DNA from: a virus
DNA length: 64,000 nucleotides
Strand: one strand, 5' to 3'
Virus genome (UHGV): UHGV-0213393
The translations under genes and the position numbers were made by a program. The notes beneath the pieces are model-generated. The model was not told the DNA's origin, did no database searches, and worked only from the letters and a program-made list of their open reading frames with translations. Positions 11,753 through 37,750 of the stretch are shown here, in pieces. The stretch's first letter is position 1. Every line of letters starts with the position of its first letter.

Positions 11753-12237
11753 AAACTTACTACCCATCCCTGAACTGCTATCCAACCACTAATCCTGAGC
11801 TGTCAGGGAAACTTCTGTCCCTCCTGGCTGATAGTCCTGATGAATGGCATAAGCCTGGTGATATCAACACACAGTTCCCTGAGTACGGGTGTATCCGCAC
11901 CCGAAATGAGCTGAAGAACCTCATTGCTCACGGTTTTGTCCGTCACCGTAGCGGGAAAGGCTATCAGTTGGCTATCCCACAAGGAGAGGCAAGAGAACTC
12001 TTTGGCTATCGAGAAAGCCAGACGCAAGCGCGGGTGATCGCAGAAATTATCCGTAATGGCAGCGTCTATGCCCGCAAATTCTGGCTGTCTGGCGGTGGCG
12101 ATGCATCACAGTTCTTGCGTGCTGTGCGATCGCTGGAGGAACAAGGTGTAATCGAGAATACCTGCGTCTCCGTTCCGACCGCTCCGCATATCAAACGCCG
12201 GATTTATACATTTACCCGGAGAGCTAAAAAGCAATGA
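11749..12237 (+). CDS. hypothetical protein
   Basis: 162-aa ORF, coupled to neighbours. Confidence 0.5.
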   Translation: MKTYYPSLNCYPTTNPELSGKLLSLLADSPDEWHKPGDINTQFPEYGCIRTRNELKNLIAHGFVRHRSGKGYQLAIPQGEARELFGYRESQTQARVIAEIIRNGSVYARKFWLSGGGDASQFLRAVRSLEEQGVIENTCVSVPTAPHIKRRIYTFTRRAKKQ

Positions 12238-12728
12238 TTAACGTGAAAGTGAAACGCCTTCATCCGGCGGCAAAACTCCCCGTTTACGCCACCGCCGGAT
12301 CGGCGGCGATGGATTTTGTTGCTGTTGAAATAACGCCTGGTATCGATAGCAATGGCGCTATTTCCTCAAGCTGGTGGGTGCATACCGGCCTCGCTATGGC
12401 GATCCCTCCTGGCTGGTGTCTGAAACTTTATCCTCGTTCCGGATTGGGCTGCAAAAAGCATACGCGCCTGGCTAACTGCGTAGGAATTATCGACGCCGAT
12501 TATCGCGGTGAAATCATGGCAAAACTGATTACAGATCCTGGTGGTGAAGGTGTTTGCCTCAAGCCTGGAATGGCGGTCATGCAAGGCATTTTTGAGCGTG
12601 TTGAACCGGTATCGCTGGTAGAAGTTGATGAACTCGATGAAACAGAGCGAGGTGCTGGTGGCTTTGGTAGCACATCGGAAGACCGCATTGAAATCAAGCG
12701 TACACCGCTTCAGTACGAAAAGTTTTAA
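12234..12728 (+). CDS. dut: dUTP diphosphatase (dUTPase)
   Basis: Motifs AGSAAMD, PRSGLG, GIIDADYRGE and RGAGGFGSTS correspond to the conserved dUTPase motifs. Confidence 0.9.
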   Translation: MINVKVKRLHPAAKLPVYATAGSAAMDFVAVEITPGIDSNGAISSSWWVHTGLAMAIPPGWCLKLYPRSGLGCKKHTRLANCVGIIDADYRGEIMAKLITDPGGEGVCLKPGMAVMQGIFERVEPVSLVEVDELDETERGAGGFGSTSEDRIEIKRTPLQYEKF

Positions 12729-29634: not shown

Positions 29635-29949
29635 GTGACCGGACACAGCAAAATGTATGCCACGAAAAAAATTGATTTCACTTATTCTTCCGCCACAATT
29701 GAGCGGCGCTTCACCCTCATTAGAGAGTTGGAACTGTCAAAAGTCTGGTATCAAATTCTACTGGATGAAGAGTTCTCACTGATGATAATGGCTGAAAAAG
29801 AAGCAATGCCGAATGACCGGCATAAAGTCATTGCCAGCCTTGACCTGGTGACAAACAGATACTGGGAGACAGAGGAACTGCGTGAAGCGGGAGTAATTCG
29901 TGACCTGATGGATAATTCCGTTCCCCGTCGTTATCGAGTAATGAGCTAA
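29635..29949 (+). CDS. hypothetical protein
   Basis: 104-aa ORF (GTG start in track; alternative ATG at 29652). Confidence 0.4.
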   Translation: MTGHSKMYATKKIDFTYSSATIERRFTLIRELELSKVWYQILLDEEFSLMIMAEKEAMPNDRHKVIASLDLVTNRYWETEELREAGVIRDLMDNSVPRRYRVMS

Positions 29950-30094
29950 AACTCACCTACACACCGTCAGGCCCAACGCTAATAAATGAAACACCCCGCT
30001 CTTAGTGTTTCAGGGAGCCAGCTCATTTTTAGCTTGGAAGCAACTTGATTATGAGCTAAGCCTGACATACACTTCAGCGAGAAAATGATCAAGT

Positions 30095-30135
30095 TAAAGA
30101 CACAAAAGCTCTGTTAAAACAGAGCTTTTGTGTCT
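30095..30135. other. perfect 17-bp stem-loop at left edge of AT-rich island
   Basis: aagacacaaaagctctg-ttaaaa-cagagcttttgtgtctt. Confidence 0.5.
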
Positions 30136-30275
30136 TTAAAACATAGATATCATGCCATATATAGTGCCAAAGTTAGTTTTAGACACTATATATATTACAA
30201 AAGGTAAAAACCGCTTCTACTTTTAACATACACAGAAAAAAAGAAAGCGGTTATAGATAAGGGAAAGGAGGGGTT

Positions 30276-30581
30276 ATGCTCTATGCGGTTCCTCAGCAAG
30301 CTTCTGATTCTTTGAAGTTGATCAAGACTGTACTTCAGCTTATAGCATCTCAACAAGAAGTGTCACAGCAGTTAAAGTTACGGGTTTATGAGGTGATCAG
30401 AGAAGCCTCAAACTTAAGTGTAGATAAAGGTGATCAACTACAGATTCCCTCTCACAGAGAGTCCATCTCGCTCGCGGTAGAAATACGCCATACTAAGGCG
30501 CTAGCCAAGGTGCTAACCAAAGTAACTAGCGAAGATATGTTAGAACCCGTAATGGCCCGGAATGTATTAGAGTACATTTAA
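30276..30581 (+). CDS. hypothetical protein, first gene of AT-rich three-gene operon
   Basis: 101-aa ORF with RBS aaggagggg; stop overlaps next start. Confidence 0.55.
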   Translation: MLYAVPQQASDSLKLIKTVLQLIASQQEVSQQLKLRVYEVIREASNLSVDKGDQLQIPSHRESISLAVEIRHTKALAKVLTKVTSEDMLEPVMARNVLEYI

Positions 30582-31666
30582 TGCTTGCATTTACACAACT
30601 TACATTAGTTCGAAATAAGCTAAGGGAGATTTCAGAATCTCCCTATTTTTCTAAAGACATGCATGAATATCTCGCTGTTCTACAAGAAGCAGCAGATAAG
30701 CTATATGAAAACCATGAGAAGGTTGCCGATGAAATAATTGCTGATTGTACTTTTTTTATCACCGATGCAGTTAATTTTTTCACTGGCAGTACTACAAAGA
30801 AAATTCCCTACGAGATTGTTTATTGCTTAAATGATGCCTGTAAAAAATGGATAAGTGAAAAAACACTTATTACAACGGCTCTATCGCCAGATATGAATGG
30901 GTTTTATTTTAAGTCTGTAAGTAAGAATTTCTACACTTTACTTAATGAAATTTTACATGTTAAATGCGATATCGAATTAATTCAGATTTCATTACCTGAA
31001 ATGTACCGAAGACGACCATTGTGCTCAACACCTTTATATCACGAGTTGGGCCACTTTGTTGATATTAGCAAAGGTATTTCTGAGCTTGCCAATCTAAACT
31101 TTCGTTCTATTAATCAAGGTACGCTTCCTGTGCCACATAAAGGTATTGAGTGGTCTAAATTACCTGATGTTATTTGGCTGAATCACTGTAGGGAGTATTT
31201 TGCAGATCTTTTCAGTGCGCAATTTGTAGGGGAAAGCGGTGTGGATTTCTTATACAAATTAGCTGGTTCTCATCCTGCAAGCGAAACTCACCCATCAACA
31301 GAAAACAGGGTTAAAGTTGTAAGCGACTTTTTGAACAAAGTGGAAAATCCAGTTATTGGCATGTTCAATGCTGTGATATCAGCCTTACATAAGGGTGGGC
31401 AAATTATTTCTCCTTGTTTGACATTGCCGACACCTTTGCTTGATGTGAAATCAGCTTTTGATAATGTGCGTCCTTTTGTTATTCGCGACCACAATGAAAT
31501 GCATGCTTTTATTAACAGCAGCTGGCAGTACTTATGCTCTGAATGGGAAAAACCTACGGGTATATGGTCTGGGTTGTCAAAAGAAGCCATAGAAAAAACT
31601 ATAAATGATTTGGTTGAAAAATCGATTCGAAACGTAATGATTCTTGAAAAATGGAATGCACAATGA
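30581..31666 (+). CDS. HExxH-motif protein, possible zinc metallopeptidase
   Basis: 361-aa ORF with PLYHELGHFVD motif; AT-rich; coupled on both sides. Confidence 0.55.
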   Translation: MLAFTQLTLVRNKLREISESPYFSKDMHEYLAVLQEAADKLYENHEKVADEIIADCTFFITDAVNFFTGSTTKKIPYEIVYCLNDACKKWISEKTLITTALSPDMNGFYFKSVSKNFYTLLNEILHVKCDIELIQISLPEMYRRRPLCSTPLYHELGHFVDISKGISELANLNFRSINQGTLPVPHKGIEWSKLPDVIWLNHCREYFADLFSAQFVGESGVDFLYKLAGSHPASETHPSTENRVKVVSDFLNKVENPVIGMFNAVISALHKGGQIISPCLTLPTPLLDVKSAFDNVRPFVIRDHNEMHAFINSSWQYLCSEWEKPTGIWSGLSKEAIEKTINDLVEKSIRNVMILEKWNAQ

Positions 31667-32280
31667 ATCTCCTAAGCAAAGCTGAATTACTGCAATATTA
31701 TGAATCAGAAGAACCTGAATCGTTGTTCATTGAACCTCTTCTAAATAAAAACCAAATTGGGAACTTCACCATAGACCTTAGACTTGGTTACGATTTTTTA
31801 GTGTCTATTATGACAAGGAAGCCGTCAATAGAGTTAATTCCCTCTAAAAACAATGATACTCATCAACCAATCAGAACATTTTTCCAGGAAACAAGGAGAG
31901 ATCTTGGGGATAGATTCATTGTTTACCCGAATCAAGTGGTACTGGCAACAACATTAGAATATGTTTGTTTGCCACCAGATTGCTACGCTGATGTATTGTC
32001 CAGAAGCAGCTATACAAGGCTTGGTCTTTCATTAAATACCATGATACAACCAGGGTACAGAGGCTGTATATCTTTAGAGTTATTTAATCATGGGAATAGC
32101 CCTGTGGAACTTATTGTTGGATCTCGCATATGTCAAATTCGTATATTCAAGAATGAAACTGTCGGTGAATACATAAGTCATGAGTCTCACAGGAAATATT
32201 TCGGAAATGTGAGGCCAACCGTCTCAGCAGCAGAAAGTGATAATGAATTAAATATGCTGGAAAAGATCCGACAAAAATGA
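31651..32280 (+). CDS. dCTP deaminase-family protein (dUTPase-fold)
   Basis: IDLRLGYDF, SRSSYTRLGL and IQPGYRGCISLELFNHG align with the E. coli Dcd catalytic Ser/Arg/Glu motifs; alternative start 31663 overlaps upstream stop. Confidence 0.7.
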   Translation: MECTMNLLSKAELLQYYESEEPESLFIEPLLNKNQIGNFTIDLRLGYDFLVSIMTRKPSIELIPSKNNDTHQPIRTFFQETRRDLGDRFIVYPNQVVLATTLEYVCLPPDCYADVLSRSSYTRLGLSLNTMIQPGYRGCISLELFNHGNSPVELIVGSRICQIRIFKNETVGEYISHESHRKYFGNVRPTVSAAESDNELNMLEKIRQK

Positions 32281-32368
32281 AAACTTTAATGCTTTATATT
32301 ATAAAAGCATACAGCGACAACGCAGCCACCAAGATGTGTTGTCGCCATGTTCAAAGTTCTAACGCAGT

Positions 32369-36207: not shown

Positions 36208-36957
36208 TTACTTGTCCTTTGATGTCGATTGAGACTCATATATTGTCTCTACGTCATCTATTAGTTTATTAATACCCCACAATCCAGTGTCTTTATAAAA
36301 ATCGCTTTCTTCAATTGCTTTTAATAAATCGGCAAAATCTTCTTGGGTGGAAATTCTTTTCTTTTTTGCTTTATATACATCGACAATTACTTTTATGCCG
36401 TGATACAGAGCCACTCTGGCACTCTCAGTCTCTCTCTTCTTCTCTTCAATTGCAGACAATAATTTATATTGATCTTCTGTTTGCTTTTCTAGACTTAAAA
36501 GCTTGCTCTCTTTTTGCTTCAAGTTGATCTGCAACTCTTTTATTCTTGCCCTCTCTTCTAAATCAAACTCATAGTCAATGTATCTAATTCTTGCATAGTT
36601 CCTGCCTGTTGCTTTTGATATATACATTGTTATATAAGGCATTACCACTGACGCAGTGGTTCCATATATAAATGGCATAACAAAATGAGCCACAAACGGA
36701 GATACAATGATGGGGCCAACATAAGGAAAGTGATATTTCTCACCAACCCATACTATAGACAATGTTGTATATATATCGTACTTTGATTTAAATAATATAA
36801 TAATATCCTGCCAGTTAACGACAAAAAAAGAAACCACAACATATGCAAACAACTTATTAAATAACTTGTCTCTTATGGCTTCTTCTATTGTGTTCCTGAC
36901 TGTGACATTTTCATCTTTATTTTCTAATGATGAATCTTTGCTCATATAAAAATTCAA
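36208..36957 (-). CDS. hypothetical membrane protein with cytoplasmic coiled-coil
   Basis: 249-aa ORF; hydrophobic helices then charged coiled-coil; strongly AT-rich. Confidence 0.55.
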   Translation of the reverse strand: MNFYMSKDSSLENKDENVTVRNTIEEAIRDKLFNKLFAYVVVSFFVVNWQDIIILFKSKYDIYTTLSIVWVGEKYHFPYVGPIIVSPFVAHFVMPFIYGTTASVVMPYITMYISKATGRNYARIRYIDYEFDLEERARIKELQINLKQKESKLLSLEKQTEDQYKLLSAIEEKKRETESARVALYHGIKVIVDVYKAKKKRISTQEDFADLLKAIEESDFYKDTGLWGINKLIDDVETIYESQSTSKDK

Positions 36958-37006: not shown

Positions 37007-37366
37007 TCAAACACCAACCAGGCTTTCAAGAGGAATGCCAAACTGGGAATGTAAACGACGAATCATAGGTAACGTCAAATTTCGCGTGCCATTAAGCACT
37101 TCGTAAACACGGTTTGACTTACCAATTGCCGGTTCCAGATCCTTCACTGTCAGCCCTTGCTGTTCCATACGAAACTTAATGGCTTCAATAGGTGATGGTG
37201 GCTCAATTGGGTAATGCTTTTTCTCGTACTCTTCGATGAGCAGGCACATTACTTCAAAGAAATCGCCTTCCGGTGTGTTCATTTCCGGTTCGTTATCGAA
37301 CATCGGTTCGACCGCACGCAGTGCGGCCTCATAATCTTGTTCTGTACGGATAGGTTTAATGTTCAT
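37007..37366 (-). CDS. higA: HigA-family antitoxin (HTH)
   Basis: C-terminal LTVKDLEPAIGKSNRVYEVLNGTRNLTLPMIRRLHSQFGIP parallels E. coli HigA. Confidence 0.8.
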   Translation of the reverse strand: MNIKPIRTEQDYEAALRAVEPMFDNEPEMNTPEGDFFEVMCLLIEEYEKKHYPIEPPSPIEAIKFRMEQQGLTVKDLEPAIGKSNRVYEVLNGTRNLTLPMIRRLHSQFGIPLESLVGV

Positions 37367-37369
37367 GAT

Positions 37370-37672
37370 TTACTCCAGTTCTATTGTATCCGCTTCAATG
37401 GCATCGTATTCCTTATGTGTTCCAATAAACTTAACGAACATCCATCCTCGCTGATAAGCAATTGCGACAATTAACCTGTAATCATTTCCCTTAATATTAA
37501 ACACCACGCGCCTGTTTTTAAGGATGCTGGCTGTCCGGTACTGTTCTTTGATCTCAGCCGGGTTTTTCCAGTCAGCCTTTGTTGCTTCATCAACCCATGC
37601 CTTTAATGGCTGTTCTGCATCGGGATTCTTCGCCCAGAAATCCCTTAGTGTTTTTACCGAAATTATTTTCAT
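37370..37672 (-). CDS. higB: HigB-family toxin (RelE-fold mRNA interferase)
   Basis: VVFNIKGNDYRLIVAIAY...VKFIGTHKEYD matches the HigB signature; start at MKIISVK. Confidence 0.8.
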   Translation of the reverse strand: MKIISVKTLRDFWAKNPDAEQPLKAWVDEATKADWKNPAEIKEQYRTASILKNRRVVFNIKGNDYRLIVAIAYQRGWMFVKFIGTHKEYDAIEADTIELE

Positions 37673-37699
37673 CACAGATTCCTTCTCTCTGAAAGTATA

Positions 37700-37750
37700 G
37701 TAGTCCCAATATGGGACAATGTAAAGCACTTTAGTCCCATGCTGGGATAT
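37700..37750. promoter_or_regulatory. palindromic operators in higBA promoter
   Basis: gtccca-ata-tgggac and atccca-tgc-tgggat upstream of higB. Confidence 0.55.

Follow-up and report, generated by a model that had tools for sequence, protein, structure and literature searches.

What could a phage-plasmid gain from an operon that places a relative of a nucleotide-metabolism enzyme directly behind a zinc peptidase-like protein? This question is raised by the viral genome UHGV-0213393, of which a stretch of 64,000 nucleotides (the window) was analysed, and by three genes in it, here called A, B and C (the trio), which encode a small protein, a protein with an HExxH peptidase motif and a member of the deoxycytidine triphosphate (dCTP) deaminase (Dcd) family. 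A preliminary description of this DNA had proposed that the operon could be a defence or counter-defence system. Our results suggest that the trio is a conflict or defence module, a reading to which we assign a probability of about 0.65–0.7, and that its probable role is that of a nucleotide-depleting immune module not described before. The narrower claim, that C is the dCTP-depleting effector of this module while A and B form its control layer, has roughly even odds. The reading draws on the conservation of the trio as a unit, its intact catalytic motifs, its mobile and defence-island context and a gradient of conservation that falls from C through B to A.

The trio is conserved as a unit

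The three open reading frames (ORFs) of the preliminary description were all found again on the same strand (Table 1), and their interpretation as a single operon was borne out by homologous loci, in which the trio is kept as one unit of overlapping genes. In the window, the stop codon of A and the start codon of B overlap by 1 nt (TAATG). C lies directly 3′ of B, with overlapping stop and start codons, in 55 of the 57 loci surveyed in Gamma-, Beta- and Alphaproteobacteria and Bacteroidota; the sample consisted of six contig look-ups and 51 further loci, 48 of them from contigs representing one genome per species and three from plasmids. All six look-ups (Proteus, Aeromonas, Dechloromonas, a betaproteobacterial metagenome-assembled genome and two metagenome contigs) contained the complete A-B-C order, which was also seen on Agrobacterium, Bradyrhizobium and Emticicia plasmids. 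Among the other 51 loci C immediately followed B in 49, the exceptions being one truncated contig and the locus with the most divergent B. An A-like ORF was present 5′ of B in each of the 23 proteobacterial loci with upstream sequence, and an ORF of ~100 aa occupied the position of A in 24 of 26 Bacteroidota loci. In plasmid records, relatives of C with at least 41% identity occurred in 18, including all 17 that carried B, while other Dcd proteins were 35% or less identical. The co-occurrence of peptidase homologues with this deaminase subfamily, which the preliminary description had named as a point to check by gene-neighbourhood survey, is therefore the rule (55/57 loci and 17/17 B-bearing plasmid records). 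Conservation across phyla and purifying selection on B show that the ORFs of the trio are real genes rather than chance.

Identity to the window proteins is 39–63% for C and 26–41% for B, and 31% or less for A outside its close relatives, A being the fastest-evolving member of the trio. This gradient fits a conserved effector combined with variable sensor or regulator parts. A single 631-aa protein (P0215) appeared to unite a B-type peptidase (residues 7–393) with a C-type deaminase (residues 438–625) in a natural fusion, which is possibly a gene-calling artefact.

C belongs to a distinct, peptidase-coupled Dcd subfamily

The start codon of C that is common to its homologues and to RefSeq is the ATG at 31663, overlapping the stop codon of B as ATGA; the C ORF exists as described earlier, but its product is more likely 205 than 209 aa long. 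C matched TIGR02274 with 113.3 bits, above the NCBIfam equivalog cut-off of 92.8, and PF22769 with 107 bits (E = 1.3e-30, cut-off 27), and its nearest solved structures are bacterial Dcd enzymes. Its identity to E. coli Dcd is ~34%, as determined with an E. coli query whose residues 17–156 were checked against the structure match. RefSeq annotates C as 'dcd' and both A and B as hypothetical.

The Ser/Arg/Glu catalytic motifs recognised previously were confirmed by alignment, since SRSSYTRLGL and PGYRGCISLELFN of C align with Ser111/Arg115/Glu138 of E. coli Dcd (1XS1), the residues that are catalytic in published Dcd structures. Residues were then counted in 56 sequences of the B-linked subfamily, using E. 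coli Dcd numbering. R110, S111, E138, Y171 and K178 are invariant and R115 is kept in 55/56. At Asp128 of the IDPGW motif, which we take to be the counterpart of the catalytic Asp in dUTPase motif III, the subfamily carries Gln in 55 sequences and His in one; the loop preceding this position is 3 residues shorter than in Dcd, and an aromatic residue (Tyr, Phe or Trp) stands three positions past it in 56/56. The subfamily also has invariants of its own (RR at 78–79, Q91, Q158 and R184-P185) and a conserved C-terminal extension. Since the hydrolytic Asp is replaced by Gln, C is predicted from these residues to have probably retained the deamination of dCTP without hydrolysis of the triphosphate, so that its product would be dUTP.

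Thus, C shares with the housekeeping enzyme the fold family, a score above the cut-off, the catalytic triad and Tyr171/Lys178, but differs from it in overall sequence, in the Gln for Asp128, in being mobile and in its coupling to B and A. We concluded that C is a distinct Dcd subfamily, obligately coupled to the peptidase B. Its mobility and its coupling to partner genes speak against this predicted dCTP deaminase being a housekeeping enzyme.

B is a new gluzincin family and A a small partner protein

The zincin motif LYHELGHF noted earlier in the 361-aa protein is present, and H154, E155, H158, E205, H237, P238 and R243 are invariant among 44 homologues of B. The predicted model, with a predicted local distance difference test (pLDDT) score of 92, contains a beta-sheet, an HExxH helix and a Glu helix; the regions at the two termini are large and helical, and a loop between the zinc ligands (residues 165–200) is variable. 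B scored under every curated family threshold; its match to Pfam M48 reached 17.4 against a gathering score of 20.3 and covered residues 200–248, and Foldseek found no PDB match for the model. The earlier view of B as peptidase-like is upheld by the intact zincin motif set. With M48 peptidases (BepA/YfgC, HtpX, Ste24, Oma1) B has in common the HExxH motif, the downstream Glu ligand and the (T/S)HPxxxxR motif; it differs in its score below the Pfam gathering threshold, in having helical domains of its own at both termini and in showing no sign of a membrane or periplasmic location. B represents a new family of gluzincins whose motif set resembles that of M48; the family comprises about 500 clusters at 50% identity.

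The ratio of nonsynonymous to synonymous substitution rates (dN/dS) of B is 0.16–0.26, which indicates purifying selection. Two plasmid alleles of the trio differ by 1 aa in A and by none in C, while their B genes show 96 nucleotide differences and a 12-nt indel, mostly in the central part. In this centre (window 30700–31300, residues ~36–250) dS is 0.44, compared with 0.03–0.09 in the flanks, at a dN/dS of 0.16. These values ruled out diversifying selection; the centre is a recombination tract in which the catalytic and variable core was exchanged.

The intact active site of B, and helical terminal regions and a variable loop that could bind a substrate, would also suit a different division of labour, in which B is the killing effector, a Lit-like protease acting on host or phage proteins, C is a nucleotide-sensing or pool-conditioning accessory and A is an adaptor. 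We consider this very unlikely, as C is the most conserved member of the trio and has kept every catalytic residue, which would be unexpected for a mere sensor.

A is a helical bundle with an N-terminus that is invariant yet disordered (MLYAVPQ here, MLAAxP in other Proteobacteria). Searches of NCBIfam, PADLOC and PDB sequences gave no useful match for A and B, and PHROGs lists A, B and C only as orphan families of unknown function. If the trio is an immune module, A and B would add two new protein families, a small partner protein and a soluble M48-like gluzincin.

Trio loci often lie among defence genes and recurrently near Type I Bub operons

Homologues of the trio were found next to QatABCD and an integrase, next to a type I restriction-modification (RM) system and Abi_C, and next to SIR2 and VapC; MADS genes are also among the neighbours. 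In one locus the trio is inserted between hsdR and hsdS/M of a type I RM operon, and in another it stands beside Bub, CapH/CapP, type II RM and Tn7-like genes. In a tally of the two large genes closest to the trio on either side (125 proteins), the most frequent families were ThiF (8), Prok-JAB (7), Peptidase_M78/capP (6) and Multi_ubiq (5), and mad2, RmrA and IetS also occurred. Of the two possibilities raised in the preliminary description, defence agrees with these defence-rich neighbourhoods, but counter-defence is disfavoured, because most homologues reside in chromosomes or on plasmids of non-phage type, with RM, Qat or Bub genes as neighbours, and no more than two true matches were obtained among 2.9 million viral contigs.

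At 20 of the 57 loci, from three proteobacterial classes and Bacteroidota, genes of Type I Bub (6E/DUF6527) ubiquitin-like conjugation operons (BubAB, BubCD, BubE) were located no more than 8 kb from the trio. In seven alphaproteobacterial loci the Bub genes lie directly 5′ of the trio in the same orientation, ~70–90 nt from A; other arrangements are listed in Table 1. In Agrobacterium (NZ_CP048560, 25399–30056) the genes BubAB-BubCD-BubE-A-B-C make up a six-gene operon. Pairs of CapH/CapP-like helix-turn-helix (HTH) and M78 genes adjoin the trio in three loci (L008:7773–8716, L011:4432–5360 and L017:6637–7556); in L008 the pair is immediately 3′ of C and no Bub operon was detected nearby. These neighbouring pairs might regulate the trio in the three genomes. 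Bub operons share CapH/CapP regulators with the trio. The trio of the window has no adjacent BubAB, BubCD or BubE, and neither Bub nor Cap genes occur anywhere in the window. Viewed from Bub, the link is weak, as the trio was recognised on 3 among the 60 listed of 110 BubCD plasmids. The absence of Bub from the window and the small number of BubCD plasmids recognised with the trio suggest that the trio works without Bub, though Bub is a recurrent partner.

Ye et al. (bioRxiv 10.1101/2024.11.21.623953) surveyed 544 Bub operons, which are accordingly rare, reported that Bub gave no phage protection and stated its biological role as open; neither the trio nor a deaminase is mentioned in that paper. 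A tentative and in our judgement unlikely extension of the immune reading is that the trio, in which a zinc protease would license a Dcd-fold deaminase, would supply in about one-third of its loci the output or substrate arm that is missing from Type I Bub, where conjugation and deconjugation of a ubiquitin-like protein would gate a nucleotide-depleting effector. If so, the absence of phage protection by Bub operons alone could be explained, and the trio of the phage-plasmid would be a minimal, Bub-independent form. The recurrent linkage is a testable lead on the role of the Bub pathway.

Proposed mode of action and its weak points

For the enzymatic activity, toxicity, cleavage partners, trigger and phage protection of the trio we infer the following scheme. 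The cassette that carries the trio would be a self-contained anti-phage module of the abortive-infection type, an accessory cargo of a D6-like phage-plasmid, which the lysogen probably expresses from the promoter of the cassette. C would be the effector, a trimeric Dcd-fold enzyme converting dCTP to dUTP, and B, the zinc peptidase, together with A, the small helical protein with the conserved flexible N-terminus, would form the control layer. In the likeliest arrangement A would restrain C or B in uninfected cells, and an infection cue would lead B to cleave A; cleavage of C by B appears less likely. Once C is released, the dCTP pool would collapse and dUTP would rise, by which the replication of the incoming phage would be blocked.

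Several observations weigh against this explanation. No PADLOC match was obtained for A, B or C (for C at E <= 1), and at some trio loci the surrounding genes are ordinary metabolic ones. Since E. coli copes with its own Dcd, deaminase activity alone need not be toxic; moreover, C may remain under dTTP feedback, and D128Q could change its substrate rather than merely abolish hydrolysis. A has no recognisable inhibitor, antitoxin or DNA-binding fold and no detectable HTH. Finally, the variable centre of B reflects recombination under purifying selection and bears no signature of an arms race.

The trio resides in an inserted cassette of a D6-like phage-plasmid

The window represents a D6-like (P1-related) phage-plasmid, as its tail and baseplate genes are 80% identical to those of Escherichia phage D6, in agreement with the earlier designation of the element. 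Plasmids of ~90 kb from E. coli and Salmonella that belong to rep_cluster_1704 share the backbone. A related plasmid, NZ_CP028198, contains 33 bp in place of window 29937–32368 while both flanks still align, which indicates that the hairpin, the promoter region, the three genes and the tail were inserted as one cassette, at a site that is a variable region of the plasmid family. The block had been described as AT-rich, which proved correct, the cassette having a GC content of 37.6% compared with 47.8% in the remaining window.

The cassette was present in 12 of the 62 plasmids whose sequence matches the flanks. The dUTPase gene (dut) of the element was found in 126 related plasmids, with or without the cassette, and with 12 carriers among at least 126 relatives ~10% of the D6-like family has the cassette. 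Among 5,426 complete E. coli genomes it was detected in eight, each time on a plasmid. It was absent from phage D6 and from all 50,697 phage records in both DNA and protein searches, and only two true matches occurred among the 2.9 million viral contigs of IMG/VR; a phage origin of the cassette is consequently unsupported. The dUTPase ORF reported earlier is real, as judged from its motifs and from the dut annotation in relatives, but as a gene of the backbone it carries no weight as an argument about the cassette, and a specific link between the two was ruled out.

The RefSeq label of C, its score above the equivalog cut-off and the existence of Dcd-like enzymes in phages (PHROG 1663) could be accounted for if the cassette were a nucleotide-metabolism or counter-defence aid to the replication of the element itself, providing extra dUTP/dTTP or evading host depletion of deoxynucleotide triphosphates. 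Of all the explanations considered we find this one the least probable, because the host already has dcd, C is a distinct subfamily with an obligate peptidase partner, hardly any viral contigs or phage records contain the trio, most copies are in bacterial defence contexts and dut is unlinked to the cassette.

In the Salmonella plasmids NZ_MK356557 and NZ_MK356558 the cassette was found at 86–89% DNA identity with the B and C genes unannotated, and tblastn matches were fragmented (45–54%). These copies are probably pseudogenised or error-rich.

The upstream region contains conserved palindromic elements

The perfect stem-loop that the preliminary description placed before the operon exists, but it is larger than stated there (17 bp at 30095–30135), as its arms are 22 nt long (Table 1). 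Folded as RNA, it has a free energy of −31.1 kcal/mol (z = −9.4), and none of 200 shuffled sequences folded as well. A perfect palindrome with 24-nt arms but of other sequence occurs in Proteus at the equivalent relative position, suggesting that the symmetry is conserved and not the sequence. A LexA box within the palindrome was ruled out by eye, since the spacing is CTGT-N4-ACAG and N8 is needed. The −10 hexamer of a promoter-like site, found by consensus scan and weak alone, falls within a conserved inverted repeat, equivalents of which with the half-sites ATATAGT/ACTATAT stand 5′ of A in Proteus and Aeromonas; the half-site has no other exact copy in the window. Since the chromosomes of Proteus and Aeromonas have retained the repeats, the putative factor binding them would be encoded by the cassette or broadly conserved. 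The repeats and the palindrome suggest autoregulation or a structured leader.

These elements bear on a further explanation, in which the role of A and B is limited to controlling transcription of the effector C: A would act as a repressor on the upstream inverted repeats and B would be a signal-activated peptidase destroying A, as in CapH/CapP or ImmR/ImmA. The order of small protein, peptidase and effector matches these modules, and both conserved palindromic elements reach into the promoter-like site, with a half-site unique to the cassette. B has no PF06114 match, in contrast to the peptidases of these modules. We regard this explanation as quite unlikely.

A second hairpin, followed by a T-run, lies inside gene B. 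It is retained in Proteus and also in Aeromonas, where it shows a compensatory G>A / C>T pair, and it could lower the expression of B and C relative to A. Such an excess of A over B and C would be in keeping with a toxin-antitoxin-like module for plasmid addiction, which would serve the stable maintenance of the phage-plasmid and of other mobile elements and have no role in phage defence. The location of the trio on plasmids and islands, the fast evolution of the small upstream protein and the presence of a HigBA pair nearby on the element point in the same direction. Many copies are, however, chromosomal and embedded in RM or Bub loci, and the cassette is on only ~10% of D6-like plasmids, so that we hold addiction to be very improbable as the sole function. 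Many toxin-antitoxin modules also act in defence, thus this explanation overlaps the defence reading.

Relation to known systems

The defensive dCTP deaminase described by Tal et al. (bioRxiv 10.1101/2021.04.26.441389) is a single 576-aa protein in which an N-terminal kinase (or P-loop) domain is fused to a zinc-dependent cytosine deaminase domain. The trio resembles this Tal-type/AvcD enzyme in its predicted chemistry and logic, namely infection-triggered deamination of dCTP starving phage DNA synthesis, and both are found near other defence genes. In contrast, C has 205 aa, is metal-independent, consists of the Dcd/dUTPase fold only, has no kinase domain and needs two partner genes. The precedent of stand-alone dCTP-depleting deaminases cited in the preliminary description is sound as regards the chemistry, which is established in defence, but the kinase plus zinc deaminase architecture differs, and C is a functional analogue of the Tal-type enzyme without homology to it.

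The trio likewise has the gene order of the CapH/CapP, ImmR/ImmA and IrrE/DdrO switches, with palindromic promoter elements. A relationship of B to M78/CapP was nevertheless ruled out by the missing PF06114 match and by hhalign, which gave a probability of 8% for the B family against CapP and aligned 13 columns containing only the HExxH motif. At some loci, true CapH/CapP pairs stand next to the trio.

The literature searched, the coverage of which was incomplete, contained no account of the trio or of any defence system with a Dcd fold, so an earlier description elsewhere is possible; a review of January 2026 cites only the Tal-type enzyme for dCTP deamination. If our reading is correct, the trio would constitute a second, evolutionarily independent form of dCTP-depletion immunity, in which the Dcd/dUTPase fold takes the place of that of zinc deaminases, and a tractable three-gene model, already in E. 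coli, for protease control of a metabolic effector; it would also bear on how phage-plasmids arm their hosts. The RefSeq label 'dcd' means that the subfamily is misfiled as housekeeping metabolism.

Positions of features and a second AT-rich block

Table 1. Features of the window, and Bub operons at trio loci of other genomes (L numbers denote loci)
Feature	Position	Strand	Remarks
Accessory cassette with own regulatory region and three genes	29937..32368	.	~2.43 kb, 37.6% GC
Perfect palindrome, RNA hairpin or operator	30094..30139	+	22-nt arms 30094–30115 / 30118–30139, 2 nt between
Promoter-like site TTAAAA-18-TATAGT	30136..30165	+	consensus scan, 9/12 matches
Operator-like inverted repeat ATATATAGTG-N17-CACTATATAT	30157..30193	+	overlaps −10 hexamer
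Ribosome-binding site AAGGAGG	30265..30271	+	4 nt 5′ of the ATG of A; read from sequence
Gene A	30276..30581	+	101-aa five-helix protein
Gene B	30581..31666	+	361-aa soluble gluzincin; HELGH 154–158, EYFAD (E205), THPSTENR 236–243
Hairpin and T-run inside gene B, candidate attenuator	30623..30644	+	9 bp; B codons 15–26
Gene C	31663..32280	+	205-aa Dcd/dUTPase-fold dCTP deaminase-like protein; 209 aa if start 31651
dUTPase ORF (backbone gene)	12234–12728		dUTPase motifs; annotated dut in relatives
Bub upstream of trio, same orientation	L013:1977–6634; L032, L033, L034, L036, L037, L057		
Bub divergent, CapH/CapP between	L011, L017		
Bub on either side of trio	Bacteroidota loci		
Bub within 8 kb of trio	several of L038–L062		

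A second AT-rich block (GC 0.33–0.39) is located on the opposite strand at window 36208–36957 (−) and 37007–37729 (−). The 249-aa protein encoded there has hydrophobic segments towards its N-terminus, and its C-terminal half is charged and coiled-coil-like; the block adjoins a HigA/HigB-like pair. The gene of the 249-aa protein may be another accessory or defence gene of the element.

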